This document shows, one piece after another, positions 2,481-51,959 of a stretch of 56,067 nucleotides of DNA. A program made the translations under genes and the position numbers. The notes beneath the pieces were generated by a model. It had not been told where the DNA came from. It saw only the letters and a program-made list of their open reading frames with translations, and ran no database searches. Position 1 is the stretch's first letter. Each line of letters starts with the position of its first letter. Origin of the DNA: Bacteroidales bacterium (GTDB lineage Bacteria; Bacteroidota; Bacteroidia; Bacteroidales; Muribaculaceae); assembly GCA_022768005.1 (NCBI GenBank), contig JALEMF010000065.1, forward strand, positions 1 through 56,067. The letters run 5' to 3'.

Positions 2481-5096
2481 ATGGCAAACAAAATTGTAGA
2501 GACTCCACTAATGAAACAATATCTCGAGATGAAACAAAAACATCCCGATGCTATTCTGCTTTACAGAGTAGGAGACTTTTACGAAACCTTTTCAGAGGAC
2601 GCCATCACTGCTTCGGAAATACTCGGCATCACCCTCACCAAGCGCGCTAACGGATATGCTTCAACCGTAGAACTTGCCGGGTTTCCTCACCACGCACTTG
2701 ACACATATCTGCCAAAACTAATCCGCGCCGGGAAGCGTGTGGCTATTTGTGAGCAACTTGAAGACCCTAAATTGACGAAGAAACTTGTCAAAAGAGGTAT
2801 CACGGAACTTGTCACTCCGGGTGTTGCTCTGAGCGACAATGTACTTAACCATAAGGAAAACAACTTCCTTGCTGCAATTAACTTCGGCAAAAGTAATATC
2901 GGCGTGGCACTTCTTGATATCTCCACGGGTGAGTTCCTGGTAGCGGAAGGCAATAATGACTATATTGACAAACTGCTTACGAACTTTTCTCCGAAAGAAG
3001 TGCTGATAATGCGTGGGGCAAAGTCAAAATTAGAAACGTCTTTCTCGGCAAAATTCCTTGCTTACGAACTTGACGACTGGATTTTCACTGAAGATGCAGC
3101 AGAAGAAAGACTGCTGAAACAGTTTGAGACCAAGACACTTAAAGGTTTCGGTATAGGGAAAATGCCTGATGCCATAGTGGCAGCCGGAGCAATCCTGTAC
3201 TACCTTGACATCACCAAGCATACACAGATTTCACACATCAATCGTCTGAGCAAGATTGAAGAAAACAAGTACGTGCGACTTGACAGATTCACGGTGCGCA
3301 ACCTGGAACTCGTGGAAAGTTTTTCCGAAGACGGCAAAAGCCTCCTGAATATCATTGACCGCACAGTCACTCCCGTAGGGGCGCGTATGCTTCACCGCTG
3401 GATACTTTTCCCGCTTAAGGACCCGAAAGAAATAAATAACAGGCTTGACGTGGTGGAATATTTCTTCAAACACCCCGATGAGAGGGACGAAATAAAGACG
3501 TACTTAGAGCAAATAGGTGATATAGAGCGACTTACTTCAAAAGTTTCATTCGCAAGAATTTCACCGCGTGAAATGATACAGCTCAGGAACGCACTTAACG
3601 CCATTGAGCCTATCCGCAAAATATGCATTGACTCAGACCTTCCGGTGCTACGCGCCTTAGGTGAGCAACTCAACCCGTGCAATGCTGTAAGCAAACGTAT
3701 CTCCAAAGAGATTGTAGAAAATGCACCTGTTGCCCTCAATAGAGGCAGTGTGATTTGTCCCGGAGTTAATGCTGAACTTGACAACCTTCGCGAAATAGCG
3801 TTCAAAGGTAAAGACTACCTGCTCGGAGTGCAACAGCGAGAAATTAACGCTACCGGAATACCATCGCTGAAAATCGGCTACAACAACGTTTTCGGCTATT
3901 ACATTGAAGTAACAAATACTCACAAAGACAAAGTTCCTGCGGAATGGATTCGCAAGCAGACACTCGTCAATGCCGAGCGATACATCACTCCCGAATTAAA
4001 AGAATACGAAGAAAAAATTCTCGGCGCACAAGAAAAAATTGAAATACTTGAAGCCAAACTCTACTCGGAATTGATATCTATGGTTAACACGTACACCCCT
4101 GCAATACAGCTTGATGCCAAGTTGATAGCACAGCTTGACGTACTTGCAGCATTTACGTACGTGGCTATGGAAAATCATTACAACAGACCTATAGTTGACG
4201 ATTCTCTGAAAATAGAAATCGTGGAGGGTCGCCACCCTGTGATAGAAAAGAATCTGCCACCGGGCAAGCCGTACATCGCAAATTCCGTGACTCTTGATAA
4301 TGACGGGACGCAGATAATGATGATTACCGGACCGAATATGTCTGGTAAGTCCGCCCTACTCCGCTCCACTGCGCTAAACGTGCTTATGGCGCAAATGGGG
4401 TGTTTCGTAGCAGCAGAAAGCGCACACATCGGCATTGTGGATAAAATTTTCACACGCGTGGGTGCAAGTGACAACATATCACTCGGAGAGTCAACATTTA
4501 TGGTGGAAATGACTGAAGCCGCATCTATATTGAATAATATGAGCCAACGCTCACTTATCCTTTTTGATGAACTTGGCAGAGGTACTTCCACATACGACGG
4601 CATATCCATAGCATGGGCTATCGTTGAGCATATACACAACTTCGGAAATCTACACCCGAAAACACTCTTCGCCACTCACTATCATGAACTTAACGAAATG
4701 GAAAAGTCATTCCCGAGAGTAGTGAACTATAATGTTTCAGTGAAAGAGATAGATGGCAAAGTAGTATTCCTCAGAAAACTGCAACGAGGCGGAAGTGAAC
4801 ACAGTTTCGGTATTCATGTAGCCAAACTTGCCGGTATGCCAAGACTGATTGTTGACCGCGCAACGGAAGTGCTTAAACACCTTGAGGCTTCACACCGCGA
4901 CAACACATCAGTAGCAGACATTAAAGATATGCCTAAGCATGAAAATGGTATGCAGCTGTCGTTCTTTCAGCTTGATGACCCTGTATTGGAACAAATCAGA
5001 AATGAAATCGTAGGACTTGACATTAACAATCTCACACCTGTAGCAGCACTAAACAAACTACACGATATAAAGAAAATAATCACCGGGAAAGATTAA
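2481..5096 (+). CDS. mutS: DNA mismatch repair protein MutS
   Basis: 871 aa. GDFYETF mismatch-binding region, Walker [17 protein letters not shown] and THYHEL motifs. Confidence 0.97.
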
Positions 5097-7443: not shown

Positions 7444-8124
7444 TCATTTAACTCGGAACATATACCCTAATGTAATGCCTATTGACATTCCGCGAGACGC
7501 ACTGAAAGTATCTTTCTTGCTTGAAGGAAAAATATTTCCCAAGCCGTAGTAGAAACGCGCTTCGAGCATCAATGAATGACGCTTGCGGATAATTCCTTCA
7601 ATACCAGCACCGAGTACAATACCGTAATCAAACTTATTTTTTATATCCATACCCATCTGCTCCGTAGAACGGTAATCAAGCGGAAAACCCTCGGCATTAG
7701 TCGGGTCCTTATAGTCAAAATTACTGTCAATGGAACTACCTATCATATAGCATAACTGAGGACCGAGATTAAAGAATCCCTTAAACTTTCTTCCGCCGAA
7801 AAAAATATGAGTCATAATCGGCAATTCAAGATAAGTGAGTTTGCGGCTGTAATTCAGTGCCGTACCCGTCAAGTCCTCTTGCCAACCTCTTGTAGTAAAA
7901 TTCAATTCAGTAAGCAAGCCCACATGGCGTTCCTCCGCAAAACGAAAAGACACACCGGCAGTAAGTCCGTTAAGCATTTTCTGCTCGACAGACGGAGAAA
8001 ATGACATTTTAGACATTGCCATTCCGCCATGAAAACCGACGTGTACATGCGGCACATAATGTTTTTGTGCAGATAGCGGCAATACAGTACAAACTAATAT
8101 TAATAACAGATATACTTTTTTCAT
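7444..8124 (-). CDS. outer-membrane beta-barrel (porin-family) protein
   Basis: 226 aa. Signal peptide, alternating amphipathic strands and a C-terminal ..LGYMFRVK. Confidence 0.7.
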   Translation of the reverse strand: MKKVYLLLILVCTVLPLSAQKHYVPHVHVGFHGGMAMSKMSFSPSVEQKMLNGLTAGVSFRFAEERHVGLLTELNFTTRGWQEDLTGTALNYSRKLTYLELPIMTHIFFGGRKFKGFFNLGPQLCYMIGSSIDSNFDYKDPTNAEGFPLDYRSTEQMGMDIKNKFDYGIVLGAGIEGIIRKRHSLMLEARFYYGLGNIFPSSKKDTFSASRGMSIGITLGYMFRVK

Positions 8125-11063: not shown

Positions 11064-12929
11064 ATGGCAACACGCAAATTAAAAATCAGAGACTTAACTC
11101 TCCGTGACGGTCAGCAATCACTTTTTGCTACCCGTATGAAACAAGCCAACATTGACCGCTTGCTTCCTTTGTATGAAAATGCAGGTTTTTACATTATGGA
11201 AGTATGGGGCGGTGCTGTTCCTGACTCTGTAATGCGCTACTTGAACGAATCCCCATGGGATCGTCTTCGCTCGGCAAGTGCAGCAATGAAGGGTAAATCA
11301 CTTCTTTCAGCACTTTCTCGCGGTCGTAACCTCTTCGGATACGTGCCTTACCCGAACAGCGTGCTTGAAGGCTTTTACAAAGAAGCTATTAAGAACGGAC
11401 TAAACGTAATGCGTATTTTTGATGCGCTTAACGATATTAACAACGTCAAGGAATCAATCAAACTTATCAACGACCTCGGCGGTATTCCTGACGGTGCTGT
11501 TTGCTACACTGTTGACCCTAAGAGTGAACCGGCTGAAAAACCGGGATTCTTCGCTCGTCTTTTCGGTAAAAAGGCTGAAGAACCAAAACTCATCTTCACT
11601 GATGAATACTTTGTAGAAAAAGCAAAGGCTATGGAAGCACTCGGTGCTAAAATTATCACACTTAAGGATATGGCAGGCCTTGTCACTCCACACCGTGCTG
11701 CATCTATCATCAGCAAGCTCAAAGCAGCAGTAAAAGTTCCTGTGGACTTCCACACACACTGTACACCGGGATACGGTCTTGCATCTTCACTTATGGCAGT
11801 GATGAACGGCGTTGACATTCTTGACACAAATATATGGTACTTCGGTGGCGGCTCTGCTGCTCCTGCAATCGAACTTATCTACATCTTTGCACAGAAACTC
11901 GGCATTGAAGTGGAATGTAATATGGAAGCCGTAGGTAAAATCCGTGCCGAACTCAAACAGACACGTAAAGACCTCGCAGCATTTGATCTCAATAAGGATA
12001 ACTTCCCGAAAGACTTTGACCCGCTTACAGACAAATTGCCTGCAGAAGTTGATGCTCTCTTTGACAAAGCAATCGCAGCAGCAAAAGCAGCCGACGAAGA
12101 TACACTCCTTGACGCTTGCCACGCTATTGAAGCATACTTCGGTTTCCCGAAACCTAACGAACTCGTTAAGCACGCAGAAGTACCTGGCGGTATGTACTCA
12201 AATATGGTAGCTCAACTTAAAGCACTTAACTCAAGCGAACTCCTTGAAGATGCGATGAGACTTATCCCTAAGGTTCGTCGCGATGCAGGTCTTGTACCAC
12301 TTGTAACTCCTACAAGCCAAATCGTAGGTGCTCAAGCAGTAAACCTCGCTATTGACCGCAAGAAAGGAAATCCGGACTATACAAATACATCAAACCAATT
12401 CATCTCACTCGTTAAAGGTGAATACGGCGAAACACCTGTTGCTATTGACCCTGCTTTCCGCGAAAAAATCACAGGTTCACCTGTAGAAAAGGCTTACGAC
12501 GTATCTTCTTACCGAAAGCCTGAAAATCCCGTTATAGAAAAACTCGGTGTTAAACTCGCTTCAAATAAAGAAGAAGAACTTCTCCTCGAATTGCTTCCAA
12601 ACGTAGCAAAACCGTTCCTTGAGAAACTTCGTGAAGCGGAATGTGCAGCAAGCAAAGCCACTGAAGGTCCTGCAGAAGCAAAAGCAGAGGAAAAGAAAGA
12701 CGATGCACCAATCACAGGTCCTACACAAAAAGCGCTTATGGGCGGTAAAATCGTTTCTGTTGACGTAAAGCCGGGCGATACTGTTAAGAAAGGACAGTTG
12801 CTCCTCGTTTACGAAGCAATGAAGATGGAAAACGATGTTAACTCCGAAATCGAAGGTAAAGTAAAACGTATCTTCGTAGCACCGGGCGACATCGTTAACA
12901 CTGACCAAGTGATGATTGAATTTGAATAA
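11064..12929 (+). CDS. oxaloacetate decarboxylase alpha / pyruvate carboxylase subunit B-type carboxyltransferase with a C-terminal biotinyl domain
   Basis: 621 aa. N-terminal LRDGQQS HMGL-like carboxyltransferase fold and a C-terminal biotin-attachment motif EAMKMEN. Confidence 0.85.
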   Translation: MATRKLKIRDLTLRDGQQSLFATRMKQANIDRLLPLYENAGFYIMEVWGGAVPDSVMRYLNESPWDRLRSASAAMKGKSLLSALSRGRNLFGYVPYPNSVLEGFYKEAIKNGLNVMRIFDALNDINNVKESIKLINDLGGIPDGAVCYTVDPKSEPAEKPGFFARLFGKKAEEPKLIFTDEYFVEKAKAMEALGAKIITLKDMAGLVTPHRAASIISKLKAAVKVPVDFHTHCTPGYGLASSLMAVMNGVDILDTNIWYFGGGSAAPAIELIYIFAQKLGIEVECNMEAVGKIRAELKQTRKDLAAFDLNKDNFPKDFDPLTDKLPAEVDALFDKAIAAAKAADEDTLLDACHAIEAYFGFPKPNELVKHAEVPGGMYSNMVAQLKALNSSELLEDAMRLIPKVRRDAGLVPLVTPTSQIVGAQAVNLAIDRKKGNPDYTNTSNQFISLVKGEYGETPVAIDPAFREKITGSPVEKAYDVSSYRKPENPVIEKLGVKLASNKEEELLLELLPNVAKPFLEKLREAECAASKATEGPAEAKAEEKKDDAPITGPTQKALMGGKIVSVDVKPGDTVKKGQLLLVYEAMKMENDVNSEIEGKVKRIFVAPGDIVNTDQVMIEFE

Positions 12930-12969
12930 TGTTTTATTTCATAAAATAATTATTTATATTACAAGTGTA

Positions 12970-13002
12970 AAGTGGCATAGCGGAAACCGGTATGCCACTT
13001 TT
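12970..13002 (+). terminator. intrinsic terminator
   Basis: Perfect 10-bp stem aagtggcata/tatgccactt followed by TT, 41 nt after the stop. Confidence 0.7.
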
Positions 13003-13006
13003 AATA

Positions 13007-13015
13007 TATATCACA
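13007..13015. repeat. left target-site duplication TATATCACA of element copy A
   Basis: Identical 9-mer at 13390..13398, directly abutting the other element end. Confidence 0.8.
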
Positions 13016-13389
13016 CACGGCTATTTCATTTAAAGTGGAAGAAATTGATTTGTTTTTATAAATGAAAGCAAGTAAAAGTTATCATCAGGGAGCCTCGGCG
13101 AGGCTCGGCTGTAAGTAACACCGTATAAGCACGTAAGTGCGCCATGCGGTGAAAGAATACCTCAATCTACATTCGCACATCGGGGATGTGCGGTCTGTGG
13201 TAGATGCTTTGTGTTTTGGTTATATTTTCACAGACCGAACCTCCACGAGGTTCGTTATATGTTGACGTTTCTATCTCAGGGTGGCGCACTATGTGCTTAC
13301 CCTGAGTTACTTACAGCCGAAAGCCTCCGACTTTCCTTGATAATGTCTTTTTACTCACTCTATTATATATTTTAAATGAATGAGCCGTG
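13016..13389 (+). mobile_element. foldback MITE-like non-autonomous element, copy A (374 bp)
   Basis: Terminal inverted repeats CACGGCTATTTCATTTAAA and (reverse complement) CACGGCTCATTCATTTAAA. Flanked by a perfect 9-bp direct repeat, with no ORF. The two arms are about 70 percent self-complementary around a central hairpin at 13191..13237. Confidence 0.75.
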
Positions 13390-13398
13390 TATATCACA
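13390..13398. repeat. right target-site duplication TATATCACA of element copy A
   Basis: Identical to 13007..13015. Confidence 0.8.
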
Positions 13399-13441
13399 AA
13401 AACAATATCAATTTTTGTTTGTATATTACGATATAAATTGA

Positions 13442-13449
13442 TAGTTTTG
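13442..13449 (+). promoter_or_regulatory. -7 box TAGTTTTG
   Basis: Lies 59 nt upstream of the ATG at 13508. Confidence 0.5.
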
Positions 13450-13507
13450 CAGTCAGATTCTATACCACAAATTTTATTAACATTTTAAACAAAAATTTAT
13501 CAAAGAC

Positions 13508-13897
13508 ATGAAAAAGTCAATTTTCTACAGCCTATTTGTATTTGCAATGGCTGTTATCGCAGTCGGTTTCGCATCATGCAGCGATGATGACGATCCTTAT
13601 TTCTACACATTCCAACTCGCATCAGAGAACTTAACCGGAGGTAGCGAAGATGCTATGGACTTGGACATTTCGCTCGTTGAAAACGCTGTAACTCAAGAAT
13701 TCAACGGCAAAGTAGTAGCAATTAAAGGTAGCAAAGACGCTTGCGACAAGGAAGCAATTTCACGCTTCAACAAAGCATGTGAATCAGTTACACTCAAAGG
13801 TGGCTGGAAAGGTGATTTCACTTATACACTTTTCATCACCGGTGACAAAGGCATGACTCAACAGATTGCCAACAAGAAATTCACGATGAGTGAATAA
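13508..13897 (+). CDS. small surface-type lipoprotein, paralogue 1 of 4
   Basis: 129 aa. Lipobox VGFASC followed by SDDDD, and a shared motif RFNKACESVTLKGGWKG. Confidence 0.7.
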   Translation: MKKSIFYSLFVFAMAVIAVGFASCSDDDDPYFYTFQLASENLTGGSEDAMDLDISLVENAVTQEFNGKVVAIKGSKDACDKEAISRFNKACESVTLKGGWKGDFTYTLFITGDKGMTQQIANKKFTMSE

Positions 13898-13928
13898 TAA
13901 AAATAAGCCACTCCTATAGCTAATAATC

Positions 13929-14332
13929 ATGAAGACAAAATTGTATTACACATTTCTTGCACTTTGCATCGCTATCTGCACGATTGGTTTCTCTCATGTA
14001 GCAAGAACGACGACAAATATGCAAACATCTACAATTACGGATTTTCAAAAAACGGATTCGTAGGAGGTGATGAAGACGCATACTCGGCAGACGTAGAACT
14101 CGTATATCAAACAGTCTATAAAGAATTCAAAGATGATATGGTGGTACTCTACGGTGATCAAGACAAATGTGACCAAGAGGCAATCACACGCTTTAACAAA
14201 GCATGCGACAGAGTACAACTCAAAGGAGGCTGGTACGGAAAATTTAATTATTCTCTTTACAAGACCATTGACGATGAGACAAAGCGACCAACCGTTATTA
14301 TAGCAGACAGAGTATTTGAAGTTGCCGAATAA
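13929..14332 (+). pseudogene. small lipoprotein paralogue 2, frameshifted between the signal peptide and the lipobox
   Basis: ATG 13929 encodes MKTKLYYTFLALCIAICTIGF, which resembles the paralogue 3 signal peptide, then stops at 14061. The mature part (SCSKNDD...RFNKACDRVQLKGGWYG) is in another frame (ORF 13964..14332). The frames switch inside tctctc at 13990..13995. Confidence 0.6.
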
Positions 14333-14358
14333 TAACCAAATAAAATTCGAAAAATAAA

Positions 14359-14760
14359 ATGAGAACAAAACTGTATTACGTATTTCTTGCGCTTTGTGTA
14401 TCACTTTGCGCACTCGGCATTACATCTTGTGATAATAATGATGGTCCGGGCGCAAATGTATATACCATCGGCTTAACAGGCTCAAGCAGTCACGGCAACT
14501 ATCTTGCTTTCAAAGCAGACGTCCAAACTATTGAATCAGCAGTAGTTGCTGAATTCGGCGGATTGTCATTTGAAATCCAAGGCAAAAGCGACAGCGCGGA
14601 TAAAGAAGTTAAAAATCGCTTTGAAAAAGCAATGCAAAACGTAACCCTTAAAGGTGGCTGGAAAGGCTATGTTATTTATGATGTAACTAAATACACCACA
14701 TCAGGATCAGGTTCAAAGGATATAGCAAGCAAAAAAATCGTATCACCTGACGGTGAATAA
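14359..14760 (+). CDS. small lipoprotein, paralogue 3 of 4
   Basis: 133 aa. Lipobox LGITSC and motif RFEKAMQNVTLKGGWKG. Confidence 0.7.
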   Translation: MRTKLYYVFLALCVSLCALGITSCDNNDGPGANVYTIGLTGSSSHGNYLAFKADVQTIESAVVAEFGGLSFEIQGKSDSADKEVKNRFEKAMQNVTLKGGWKGYVIYDVTKYTTSGSGSKDIASKKIVSPDGE

Positions 14761-14779
14761 AATCTTAAAGTATAAATAA

Positions 14780-14827
14780 AGAGTCTACCCTTACACATTA
14801 TGGGCAGACTCTTTTTTATATTACAAA
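14780..14827 (+). terminator. intrinsic terminator
   Basis: agagtctaccc...gggcagactct hairpin followed by T6. Confidence 0.7.
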
Positions 14828-14926
14828 TCAAAACATAAATATGCAAAAAAGAGAGAAAAGAACATAAAAAAACGCACAGAGTAACATTTTTACGCAAAAA
14901 GTGTGCGATAATTAAAAAATATGTTA

Positions 14927-14934
14927 TATCTTTG
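14927..14934 (+). promoter_or_regulatory. -7 box TATCTTTG
   Basis: Lies 43 nt upstream of the ATG at 14977. Confidence 0.55.
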
Positions 14935-14976
14935 CACCAATTCTTTAATATTTCAACATTCAAAAAAATTTAAGCA

Positions 14977-15462
14977 ATGAAAAAATCAGTATTTTACAGC
15001 CTATTTACAGTGTTCTGCTTTGCACTTTGCGCAGTAGGCTTTACTTCATGCGATGATGACGATGATGTGAACAGCTACTACAAATTAGACGTACTTCACT
15101 CAAACATAATTTTGCCTGACGATGCAGAAGCAGCAGAAGCAGCACAAAAATCATTTGATGCAGATATGAAAGTGGTTAAAGAAGCACTCTGCAACGAATT
15201 CGGCATTAAGGAAGTTGAAAAATTCAACTCAGAGAAAATCAAAGACGTAGCAGACAGCAGAGATAAGAGTGATGCTGCAATAATTGCAAGATTTGATGCT
15301 GCAGTAGCAAGCCTTCCACTTGAAAACAAATGGAACGGTGAAGTAGTTTACGTACTTTGCTACTACGATAAAATCGGTACTAAAATCGACATCCACGAAT
15401 TCACTATCTCAAATCCTCTTCCTAACGAAGGTGGTGAAGGTGAAAGCGGCGCTACAGAATAA
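14977..15462 (+). CDS. small surface-type lipoprotein, divergent paralogue 4 of 4
   Basis: 161 aa. Lipobox VGFTSC followed by DDDDD. The signal peptide is nearly identical to paralogue 1 (MKKS.FYSLF). There is weak similarity in ..ARFDAAVASLPLENKWNG... Confidence 0.65.
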   Translation: MKKSVFYSLFTVFCFALCAVGFTSCDDDDDVNSYYKLDVLHSNIILPDDAEAAEAAQKSFDADMKVVKEALCNEFGIKEVEKFNSEKIKDVADSRDKSDAAIIARFDAAVASLPLENKWNGEVVYVLCYYDKIGTKIDIHEFTISNPLPNEGGEGESGATE

Positions 15463-15492
15463 CAGATAACATTCTAAAGATACTATACAATG

Positions 15493-15526
15493 AAGTCATC
15501 GGCAATCCCGGTGACTTTATTTTTTC
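15493..15526 (+). terminator. intrinsic terminator
   Basis: aagtcatcgg-caatc-ccggtgactt hairpin followed by a T-run. Confidence 0.7.
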
Positions 15527-15588
15527 TATTTTTGATGCGAATATTATTAAAAAGAGTGATTAATTTTTGCTATTGCATTCATTTTCAT

Positions 15589-15596
15589 TAATTTTG
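15589..15596 (+). promoter_or_regulatory. -7 box TAATTTTG
   Basis: Lies 19 nt upstream of the ATG at 15615. Confidence 0.5.
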
Positions 15597-15614
15597 CAAA
15601 AAAATTGAAATACA

Positions 15615-16064
15615 ATGAACTTATTTGACAAAATTTCAGCAGACATAATGACTGCTATGAAGGCGAGAGACCGTGTACGCACTGAAGCATTACGCGGTGT
15701 CAAAAAAGAATTTATTGAAGCAAAAACCGCTGAAGGCGCACATGGAGAGCTAAGCGATGACAATGCGATGAAAATCCTTATCAAGATGGTAAAACAGCGT
15801 AAAGAAAGCGCTAAAATCTATCAAGAAAACAATCGTCCGGAACTTGCGGAAAGTGAACTTGCAGAGGCTGCCATCATTGAAGAATATCTCCCTAAGCAAC
15901 TTACAGAAGAAGAACTTACTGCCGAACTTAAAAAAATCATAGAGCAAGTAGGCGCTACTTCCGCCAAGGAAATGGGAAAAGTGATGGGTGTAGCATCAAA
16001 AACACTTGCAGGTCGTGCTGACGGACGTGCAATTTCAGCAAAAGTGAAAGAACTTCTCGCTTAA
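15615..16064 (+). CDS. GatB/YqeY-domain protein
   Basis: 149 aa. Typical YqeY pattern (MKA.D..R...LR..K......A......L.D......I.K..KQR.ES...Y). Confidence 0.85.
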   Translation: MNLFDKISADIMTAMKARDRVRTEALRGVKKEFIEAKTAEGAHGELSDDNAMKILIKMVKQRKESAKIYQENNRPELAESELAEAAIIEEYLPKQLTEEELTAELKKIIEQVGATSAKEMGKVMGVASKTLAGRADGRAISAKVKELLA

Positions 16065-19251: not shown

Positions 19252-19325
19252 TGACTCGTACAGGATTCAAACCTGTAACCTTCTGATCCGTAGTCAGATG
19301 CTCTATTCAGTTGAGCTAACGAGCC
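19252..19325 (-). tRNA. tRNA-Arg (anticodon ACG)
   Basis: The reverse complement folds as a cloverleaf: acceptor GGCTCGT/ACGAGTC, anticodon stem TCTGA/TCAGA with loop CTACGGA, T-arm ACAGG-TTTGAAT-CCTGT. Length 74 nt. Confidence 0.93.
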
Positions 19326-19364: not shown

Positions 19365-19438
19365 TGACTCGTACAGGATTCAAACCTGTAACCTTCTGAT
19401 CCGTAGTCAGATGCTCTATTCAGTTGAGCTAACGAGCC
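19365..19438 (-). tRNA. tRNA-Arg (anticodon ACG), identical tandem copy
   Basis: Same 74-nt sequence as 19252..19325, with a 39-nt spacer. Confidence 0.93.
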
Positions 19439-33417: not shown

Positions 33418-33426
33418 CAAATTCGA
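33418..33426. repeat. target-site duplication CAAATTCGA of element copy B
   Basis: 8/9 match to CAAATTCAA at 33827..33835, directly abutting the other element end. Confidence 0.65.
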
Positions 33427-33826
33427 CACGGCTCTTTCATTTAAGAATATACAGTAGAGTTAGTAAGAAGACAACTTTTTCAGGGGAACTCTGAAACATT
33501 CGATTGTAAGCAACTCAGGGTAAGCACTTTGTAAGCCACTCTGAGATAGCCATATATATTGTGGGCGCACCTCTGAAACAGTGCGTTCTGTAAAAGAATC
33601 AGGATTTTTTCATTAAATATTTATTACAGACCGTGCATCTCCGAAGCACGATTATATCGGAAGTTTGCCTATCACCGGGTGGCGCACTAAATGCTTACGC
33701 ATTAAGTGCTTACCGGGTGTTTCTTACAGCCGAGCCTCGCCGAGGCTCCCTGATGATACAGTCTTTACCTGCTTTCATTTATAAAAAATTATATCAATAT
33801 CTTCTACTTTAAATGAAAGAGCTGCG
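33427..33826 (-). mobile_element. foldback MITE-like non-autonomous element, copy B (400 bp), inverted relative to copy A
   Basis: Ends CACGGCTCTTTCATTTAA and (reverse complement) CGCAGCTCTTTCATTTAAA. Its reverse complement is collinear with copy A and includes an identical 35-mer (33723..33757 vs 13081..13115). No ORF. Confidence 0.72.
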
Positions 33827-33835
33827 CAAATTCAA
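33827..33835. repeat. target-site duplication CAAATTCAA of element copy B
   Basis: 8/9 match to 33418..33426. Confidence 0.65.
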
Positions 33836-51857: not shown

Positions 51858-51874
51858 CCCTTTGATGATTAAGG

Positions 51875-51959
51875 ACAAAAAGGGCGGCAAGGGCTAAAAG
51901 GAAATTTGGAAGAAAGAATTTGGGACTTTAGGCTTTTCCGCCCTTTTTGCCCTTTTTGT
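51875..51959. repeat. palindromic A/G-rich element (arms AAAAAGGGCGG...GGCTAAAAG and its complement)
   Basis: Perfect 11-bp inverted repeat: aaaaagggcgg at 51877..51887 and ccgcccttttt at 51938..51948. The flanks are imperfectly symmetric and include a tandem gcccttttt x2. Confidence 0.55.

Follow-up and report, generated by a model that had tools for sequence, protein, structure and literature searches.

The repetitive extragenic palindromes (REPs) and bacterial interspersed mosaic elements (BIMEs) of E. coli, Pseudomonas and Stenotrophomonas, together with TnpA-REP, the REP-associated tyrosine transposase (RAYT), make up the systems known as REPtrons and REPINs (REP doublets forming hairpins). 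In these systems a Y1 HUH transposase gene sits at a fixed site between inverted repeat copies, the extragenic hairpin repeat is present in hundreds of copies that occur singly, as inverted doublets or in clusters, and different enzyme variants accompany different repeat families. The biochemistry of E. coli TnpA-REP, and of the TnpA proteins of IS608 and ISDra2 from the IS200/IS605 insertion sequences (ISs), is established, and pneumococcal BOX elements provide a comparable example of modular elements resembling MITEs (miniature inverted-repeat transposable elements). A further group, TnpA-Y1 subclass 1.2, comprises low-copy proteins of ~148 aa with the tyrosine motif YIKNQKEHH from Bacteroidetes and Cyanobacteria, which are without IS properties or terminal IS200-type structures and for which no associated REP was reported (Quentin et al. 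2018, PMC6006769). Finally, among the Bacteroidetes, Porphyromonas gingivalis has the intergenic, MITE-like elements BrickBuilt and MITE464/PgRS, which show terminal inverted repeats (TIRs), a modular build, a narrow host range and a variable number of internal tandem repeats of 23 or 41 nt with predicted stem-loops, and for which neither covariation nor a linked Y1 transposase is reported (PMC4596501). Here we analyze a 56,067-nucleotide stretch of DNA from an uncultured gut Bacteroidales bacterium, hereafter the window (contig JALEMF010000065.1 of assembly GCA_022768005.1, forward strand), and in it a composite element of 374 bp, copy A (13016–13389, + strand), whose interior had been described in an earlier, sequence-only reading as conserved in structure. 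The feature noticed there is one unit of a dispersed DNA repeat, which probably belongs to an oversized REP/REPIN-like system of selfish repeats driven by an IS200-like Y1 (HUH) transposase.

A scan of metagenome contigs with a core pattern common to three of the four window arms yielded 58 loci, nearly all from one co-assembly series with a few ENA and JGI contigs, and a profile built from 72 units located 172 units across the 58 loci plus the window, all of them intergenic, between open reading frames (ORFs). A unit is 120–140 nt long and carries three hairpins, H1, H2 and H3, in the order linker, H1, GGCTGTAAGnAAC, H2, GGTGAyAG, a variable C/A-rich and G-poor stretch, H3 and GGTCTGT. H1 is a 7-bp and H3 a 7–8-bp stem, each with a GGn loop, and H2 is composed of an 8-bp outer stem, an AA/GCC internal loop and an apical stem of 4 bp with a GNA cap. 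The left unit of copy A, which holds the feature noticed earlier, occupies 13080–13200 on the + strand (nhmmer 116 bits, model positions 5–124) and contains the three hairpins with the single-stranded motifs GGCTGTAAGnAAC, GGTGAyAG and GGTCTGT. On the same strand, H1 (GAGCCTC-GGC-GAGGCTC) lies at 13090–13106 and H2 at 13119–13151, the latter with an outer stem CACCGTAT/ATGCGGTG that includes one T.G pair, the AA/GCC internal loop and the apical hairpin GCAC-GTAA-GTGC; the G-poor, C/A-rich segment between H2 and H3 (13152–13173) varies in length and is the least conserved stretch of the unit, and H3 (CGCACATC-GGG-GATGTGCG) is followed by GGTCTGT, the 3' edge of the unit, within 13174–13198.

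The units occur in three arrangements: inverted pairs inside TIRs, as in the window (13 complete copies), runs of same-orientation units beside one TIR, and head-to-tail arrays without TIRs of up to six units with a period of 134–143 bp (e.g., locus L017, 7187–7988). In solo units the similarity stops just after GGTCTGT. In four metagenomes holding the window's organism, which is found in pig and bovine gut samples, the core of the unit reached ~140x, 90x, 100–150x and 155x the DNA depth of its single-copy flanks; this suggests about 90–160 unit copies per genome, a figure to which related species in the same metagenomes may contribute part of the core depth. The gapped core pattern had no exact match among 185,579 species representatives (one genome per species), in which the exact core is absent or masked, and no match in viral contigs, plasmids or phages. 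Other kinds of array did not fit the repeat. The would-be spacers of a CRISPR-like or guide array are C-rich variants of one another with varying length, the R'/R'' GTTRRRY boxes of an integron attC site are missing, and the period of 134–143 bp is no multiple of 3, as a coding repeat would have. At L017, the stop codon of a metallo-beta-lactamase-fold gene falls on the first bases of the six-unit array (7986–7990), which may have replaced the original 3' end of that gene.

The stems of the unit are kept by compensatory changes, beyond chance. RNAalifold on the 72 units returned all three hairpins and showed compensation at 14 of 25 pairs; 97.0% of cells pair in the named structure (87.5% in shuffles), and only 26–51% do so when the partner is slid by 1–3 columns. 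Fifteen pairs have changes in both partners, with a covariation score of 0.246 versus 0.085, and 0 of 500 shuffles equaled these values, so that a comparison across many copies, which the sequence-only reading had put forward as the check on its claim, supports the stems. Six of the seven H1 pairs are changed on both sides family-wide with 98% of cells paired, four outer pairs of H2 covary with 99.8% of cells paired, and three to four pairs covary in H3. A tree-aware count gave 41 simultaneous two-sided changes (1.9 expected), and a tree built without the stem columns gave 60 (4.3 expected); slid registers also give 10–28 simultaneous changes, and the conservative minimum is about 15–20 compensatory events. 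The exchanges are readily seen in the stem versions themselves, which include GAGCCTC/GAGGCTC, GAAAGTC/GACTTTC, GTGCATC/GATGCAC, AAGCCTC/GAGGCTT and GAATGTC/GACATTC for H1, CACCGTAT/ATGCGGTG, CTCAGGGT/ACCCTGAG and CACCGGGT/ACCCGGTG for the outer stem of H2, and the GCACCTC, GAACCTC, GCACATC, GCACGTC, GTGCTTC and GCGCTTC types for H3. The apex of H2 is either shortened symmetrically to GC-GAA-GC or extended by 7 bp capped by GNAA. The hairpin tips (yTC-GGn-GAr) and the flanking motifs are kept while the stem sequences drift.

Several details of the sequence-only reading, which had compared only copy A with the second composite element of the window, copy B, take on a different meaning in this larger family. 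The 35-mer ATCATCAGGGAGCCTCGGCGAGGCTCGGCTGTAAG does occur exactly twice, at 13081–13115 (+) and 33723–33757 (−), with none expected from 100 shuffles, and encloses the H1 hairpin as described; it is invariant between the two window copies, but family-wide H1 exists in at least five well-paired sequence versions. The apical hairpins of H2 were likewise found as reported, GCAC-GTAA-GTGC at 13129–13140 in copy A and GCACTTAATGC-GTAA-GCATTTAGTGC on the minus strand at 33709–33684 in copy B. The GTAA (GNRA) loop that they share is not conserved in the family, where most caps are C-GNA-G triloops (GTA, GCA or GAA) and some are ATA or TTT, and the argument for RNA from an orientation-specific GNRA loop fails with it. 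The outer stems of H2 differ as had been claimed, with CACCGTAT/ATGCGGTG (one T.G) in the left arm of A, CTCAGGGT/ACCCTGAG in its right arm and CACCCGG/CCGGTG (with a bulged C) in the left arm of B. The next hairpin of copy A is GCACATC-GGG-GATGTGC at 13175–13191, a loop given before as GGGG because one G was counted twice, and its counterpart in copy B, CGTGCTTC-GGA-GATGCACG with one T.T mismatch, indeed differs in sequence and has the same fold.

The interior of copy A is an imperfect palindrome, with left and right arms 73% complementary over 62 nt, and both local folding and pairing of the arms over ~170 nt had been considered for it. The full copy A strand folds as a long foldback, which is the minimum free energy structure (−156 kcal/mol as RNA, z = −12.6), and a single unit folds into its three local hairpins (z = −4.5 as RNA, −4.7 as DNA). 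Only the local hairpins are the conserved feature, because the head-to-tail arrays cannot form the foldback; an arm-to-arm duplex was rejected as a conserved feature on this ground and because the arms bear different compensated stems that are mutually mismatched. Three additional helices were also rejected, one of GUUAC/GUAAC around H1 that shows no covariation with the T/A at AAG[T/A]AAC, one of CAG/CUG that is poorly kept, and one of GAyAG/CUrU that is only 87% paired, with 4 double changes.

The decisive line of evidence is the gene that the units surround. Among the ORFs beside arrays that were screened, nine are ordinary housekeeping genes or without a Pfam match, and one, at 2791–3234 of locus L036, encodes a 147-aa Y1 HUH transposase (Pfam PF01797, Y1_Tnp, E = 1.1e-21; NCBIfam NF033573, transpos_IS200, 58.8 bits versus a cut-off of 55) with the HUH motif NHVH and its tyrosine in NYIKNQKSHH. 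Against solved structures this protein showed only weak similarity to the ISDra2 and IS608 TnpA proteins, with the catalytic motifs aligned, and E. coli TnpA-REP was not matched at E <= 1. In L036 three + units lie to the left of the gene and one inverted unit starts 7 nt past its stop codon, and related Y1 genes are present in loci L065–L073 and L079–L088. Their proteins form two clusters, P0002 and P0001/P0023, that are 75% identical (72% at the nucleotide level) and occupy different positions in the chromosome: in 8 of 8 assemblies P0002 has a Peptidase_C11 gene and an MscS channel gene downstream of it, and in 10 of 10 assemblies, as well as in L036 and L073, P0001/P0023 has a large Chlam_PMP-like gene on one side and on the other an AraC-family gene with dnaX. 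At these two non-orthologous sites, the Y1 gene is flanked by inverted units in 20/20 assemblies. The geometry is uniform, in that + units end 66–69 nt before the ATG, − units begin 6–7 nt past the stop codon and the H3/GGTCTGT ends of the units face the gene in all 20 loci, while the number of units per side varies from 1 to 6 between assemblies. More distant Y1 homologues (41–46% identity; L074, L076–78) are flanked by hairpin-rich repeats of their own that are unrelated to the units; in L074 these surround the gene as inverted copies, and in L076 they are direct. Of the two carriers that the sequence-only reading had proposed for the conserved structure, a functional RNA or a single-stranded DNA intermediate as opposed to a decaying relic, it is single-stranded DNA that has gained evidence, from this flanking of the Y1 gene; the structure itself is kept, and the RNA alternative has gained none.

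Some features of the Y1 loci deserve mention in their own right. No TIR pair bounds any of the 20 loci. The P0001/P0023 block of units, gene and units is bracketed by a direct repeat, AAGGGCGAAAAGGGCAG (2358–2374 and 3380–3396 in L036, and also in L079–L088), which in some assemblies reaches about 27 nt (…AGCGAGrACAA) and may represent a long target duplication or else the scar of a recombination event, and a solo TIR-like half-site (GATrGCTCTTTCATTTAAG) lies just left of the flanking direct repeat at the P0001 locus. A 28-nt inverted repeat of the window itself (AAGGACAAAAAGGGCGGCAAGGGCTAAA and partner, 51871–51954, 86% complementary), intergenic and beside a terminator-like hairpin, is built of AAGGGC-like motifs reminiscent of that direct repeat. 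In L074, upstream of the distant Y1 homologue P0004, a 38-nt tandem repeat (1878–2181) of at least six copies, each with a CCTTCGGCG hairpin, sits between copies of P0004's own 131-nt hairpin module. In sequencing run X5, where the window's organism stands at about 65x, a 614-nt contig of depth 37 encodes a third Y1 variant (…ETSKW-LIANQHFPLF…), a possible candidate for the Y1 gene of the window's own genome.

This arrangement resembles the REP systems in the fixed-site Y1 gene between inverted repeat copies, in the dispersal of an extragenic hairpin repeat, at about 100 or more copies per genome, as single copies, inverted doublets and clusters, and in the association of different enzyme variants with different repeat families. 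It departs from them in that the unit spans 120–140 nt with three hairpins, compared to a single palindrome of 20–40 nt in a REP, and lacks the GT[AG]G tag at the base of a hairpin (the nearest equivalent, GTAAG, lies 4 nt upstream of the foot of H2), in that long head-to-tail arrays are common, and in that some copies bear TIRs and a 9-bp target-site duplication (TSD) and the host is a gut Bacteroidales bacterium. The protein is also of class 1, with the Y motif YIKNQKSHH, and not of RAYT class 2 (YIxxNP). The system is therefore REPtron- and REPIN-like, yet not a member, since it lacks two defining features, the short GTAG-tagged palindrome and the class 2 enzyme. Judged by length and motifs, the protein fits TnpA-Y1 subclass 1.2: the Y1 proteins here have 147–150 aa and Y motifs of the form Y---Q--HH (YIKNQK[SVE]HH, YIANQREHH, YIQRQKEHH), their genes stand at fixed loci and the host phylum is Bacteroidetes. 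Unlike subclass 1.2 as published, the gene here regularly stands between copies of a dispersed hairpin repeat, and the HUH motif is NHVH in most of the members recovered here as opposed to DH[IV]H; we found no later description in the literature of subclass-1.2 repeats or of REP systems in Prevotella-like bacteria. With IS200/IS605 elements such as IS608 and ISDra2, and their palindrome-associated transposable element (PATE) derivatives, the system has in common the Y1 HUH fold (PF01797, NCBIfam IS200) and, in H1 and H3, two similar hairpins on the same strand that recall the left and right ends of these ISs; their subterminal hairpins are recognized as structure on single-stranded DNA, which by analogy may hold for the unit. 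In contrast to autonomous IS200/IS605 elements, which have several identical tnpA copies and neither TIR nor TSD, the gene occupies one syntenic site per lineage, the repeats on its two sides are inverted and not co-oriented and vastly outnumber the gene, and no target tetranucleotide was identified for the units. The likeness to BrickBuilt and MITE464 lies in the intergenic, MITE-like and modular construction with TIRs around variable tandem stem-loops and in the narrow host range, although the IS5-like TIRs of the latter (GAGACC...) are unrelated to CACGGCTCTTTCATTTAAA, the family consensus here (PMC4596501).

The window copies add a second layer to this system. Copies A and B are both intergenic, and copy A runs from TIR through left unit, short center and inverted right unit to TIR. 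Its left TIR (13016–13034, +) is CACGGCTATTTCATTTAAA and its right TIR (13371–13389, −) is the inverted-repeat partner; over 20 nt (19–20 bp) the two are 90% complementary. Abutting them on the outside is the identical 9-mer TATATCACA, the TSD, at 13007–13015 and 13390–13398. The inverted right unit lies at 13228–13346 (−; nhmmer 99 bits) and has the stem versions GAAAGTC, CTCAGGG and GAACCTC. Copy B (33427–33826, −), a complete composite of 400 bp, is inverted relative to A and 81% identical to it, with TIRs as an inverted pair at 33427–33445 and 33808–33826 and 9-bp flanks of CAAATTCGA at 33418–33426 and CAAATTCAA at 33827–33835. Its unit matching the earlier finding (33623–33758, −; 97 bits) has a long apical H2 stem with the GTAA cap, and its second unit (33474–33593, +; 66 bits) is the most degenerate of the window's four. 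Among the 13 complete copies, the TSD matches at 9/9 positions in window A and L042, at 8/9 in window B and L034, and at 7/9 in L058 and the second L034 copy. The copy A insertion is also found in 6 other assemblies, no empty-site allele of it was seen in the four metagenomes, and locus L041 is an orthologue of window 13081–15888 with 98.6% identity.

The immediate surroundings of copy A include a terminator-like hairpin (AAAGTGGCATAGCGG…CCGGTATGCCACTTT, 12969–13001) after a carboxylase-family gene (HMGL-like/PYC_OADA/biotin-lipoyl by Pfam), whose transcript contig in run X47 stops at 12887; copy A is inserted just past this hairpin and leaves it intact. Just downstream (13508–14760) stand three adjacent paralogous small ORFs of 129, 122 and 133 aa that recur every 426–428 bp, have no Pfam match in the orthologous loci and start with a lipoprotein-signal-like N-terminus (MKKS…FASC). 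Elsewhere in the window, 1256–1291 matches the Rfam DUF805b RNA motif (42.7 bits versus a gathering score of 35.6).

Modeled on the IS608 and ISDra2 TnpA proteins and E. coli TnpA-REP, the Y1 enzyme would recognize the hairpins on one strand while the DNA is transiently single-stranded, may cut and rejoin near them, and would by this means multiply and maintain the units. Such recognition of the hairpins would explain why the shape, the hairpin tips and the flanking motifs are kept while the stems drift. The 375–400-bp composite, in turn, would be spread in trans by a second, DDE-type transposase. Its TIR/TSD layer is most simply explained as an inverted unit pair packaged in, or inserted into, a DDE-moved MITE.

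A number of observations weigh against this interpretation. The 56-kb window contains no Y1 gene, and four metagenomes that hold the window's organism at 4–67x have no P0001-type gene at >=80% nucleotide identity, which leaves the Y1 partner in the window's genome only a candidate. The unit is 3–6x longer than a classical REP and has no GT[AG]G immediately at the base of a hairpin, the enzyme belongs to class 1 rather than RAYT class 2, and neither sharp ends nor a target motif were found for solo units. To our knowledge Y1 transposases do not make TIRs or target duplications, and for this reason the window copies require a second enzyme. The excess of simultaneous changes in slid registers points to swapping of whole hairpins between copies by gene conversion, which inflates the count of compensatory events. 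In seven assemblies orthologous copy A is ~3x more polymorphic than its mostly coding flanks, and individual copies are therefore not strongly constrained. Lastly, the units are transcribed at a low level and may have some effect as RNA.

The alternative that survives best, which we nonetheless regard as unlikely, is that the composite is a DDE-type MITE of the ordinary kind that has captured a minisatellite, as in BrickBuilt. The hairpins would then have no function, the palindromes would persist because intrastrand template switching repairs quasi-palindromes and gene conversion spreads entire hairpins among about 150 copies, and the Y1 gene would merely stand in a hotspot for insertions or have been captured as well. 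The composite does have the features of a MITE, being short (374–400 bp), non-coding and multi-copy with 19–20-bp TIRs and 9-bp TSDs, and Bacteroidetes MITEs with internal tandem repeats are a precedent (PMC4596501). Array length varies between strains, unit orientation shows no bias, and the co-changes in slid registers fit the swapping of modules. Several polymorphisms of orthologous copy A in the seven assemblies look like conversion toward the family consensus, for example at 13244/13245, which vary together, and at 13324, which switches between wobble and Watson-Crick pairing. A hotspot is, however, unlikely, because the same geometry surrounds two 75%-identical Y1 genes at different sites and distant homologues have unrelated hairpin repeats of their own. 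Template switching does not explain why loop bases and non-palindromic motifs (GGCTGTAAGnAAC, TAAG..GCCA and GGTCTGT) are so much more conserved than the variable segment, and the T.G mismatch of H2 stays uncorrected in about 70 units. Moreover, no parent IS with these TIRs was found in the window or in 88 loci, the loci having been chosen by unit content.

A variant of the Y1 interpretation concerns the TIR-bounded form of the window. The internal geometry of the window MITE is that of the Y1 locus, namely a unit, then a center or the gene, then an inverted unit, with the H3 ends inward, and this shared geometry makes it possible that the window form is a gene-less derivative of a Y1-bearing element, with subclass 1.2, so far an orphan HUH group for which no DNA partner is known, driving a REPIN-like replicator population of three-hairpin units of ~130 nt in gut Bacteroidales. 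We consider this quite unlikely. Were it true, a Y1-associated element would leave 9-bp target duplications, which we know of in no case of HUH Y1 transposition.

Very unlikely, in our view, is that the unit is a structured non-coding RNA, either a small RNA or a cis-acting element of untranslated regions, carried and amplified by a MITE, with the three hairpins as its scaffold and the variable C/A-rich stretch as a single-stranded seed or protein-binding region. The covariation behind the three hairpins would suit an RNA, as would the G-rich loops on one strand, the G-poor and variable H2–H3 segment, the T.G pair fixed in most H2 stems and a number of wobble (G.U) singletons slightly above that of A.C singletons (about 16 to 10, not significant). 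Yet the hairpin tips and GNA triloops are equally suited to DNA hairpins, no terminator-like U tract follows H3, and the association with the Y1 gene is left unexplained. Rfam 15 gave no match to the window element at the gathering threshold, and at E <= 10 only chance miRNA/U5 matches; at E <= 1 there was none on the units or gene of the L017 six-unit array and the L036 Y1 locus, two weak matches below gathering in these loci falling outside the units and the Y1 gene. Several arrays begin 0–30 nt past a stop codon in sense orientation, but by hand count the units are oriented the same as co-directional neighboring genes in 6 cases and opposite in 6, without bias, and the count at gene 3' ends, about 19 to 12, is not significant. 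A self-cleaving ribozyme or rolling-circle satellite was also considered and rejected; the CUGAUGA that copy A has on its minus strand is not kept from unit to unit, the helix order is wrong and no Rfam ribozyme matches.

Metatranscriptomes, read as assembled contigs without strand information, point the same way. Units were seen in four of four and then in three of four of these datasets, and transcript contigs of 1.1–1.2 kb extend into them, yet the element reached a depth of only 2–6 in four metatranscriptomes, like sporadic contigs of neighboring mRNAs. The multi-copy core had a depth of 37 in one metatranscriptome and 0 in another, compared to 28–98 for the window tRNAs; in run X47 it summed to ~237 for roughly 150 copies beside an upstream gene at 43, and in X28 it was undetected while the tRNAs stood at 56–87. 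Transcription of the units is thus mainly read-through and amounts, for each copy, to a few percent of that of a moderately expressed gene, which does not fit a small RNA that is stable and abundant. In the metatranscriptomes the window's most abundant RNA, at depth 28–98, comes from two identical tandem tRNA genes 113 bp apart (19252–19325 and 19365–19438).

That the two copies are decaying relics alike by chance or history, with no structural constraint, might be entertained for a window holding only two copies of 81% identity, but is so improbable given 172 related units with 97% pairing, 15 compensated pairs against 0/500 shuffles and a 35-mer expected 0 times that it can be set aside.

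The findings bear on practical as well as biological questions. About 90–160 copies per genome is an estimate for a repeat of which some 150 near-identical copies explain why contigs break at the units, and 94 of 136 contig blocks with the P0002 gene are under 2 kb; the difference in array length between strains makes the repeat a strain-typing marker, and the unit provides a defined oligonucleotide set for structure-specific recognition of single-stranded DNA. The case also illustrates that covariation by itself is not enough to infer an RNA gene. If the Y1-driven, REP/REPIN-like interpretation is true, the unit would be the first candidate DNA substrate for Y1 HUH subclass 1.2, and the REP/RAYT idea of a single-copy enzyme with its population of hairpins would extend to gut Bacteroidales, with a larger, multi-hairpin unit and long tandem arrays.

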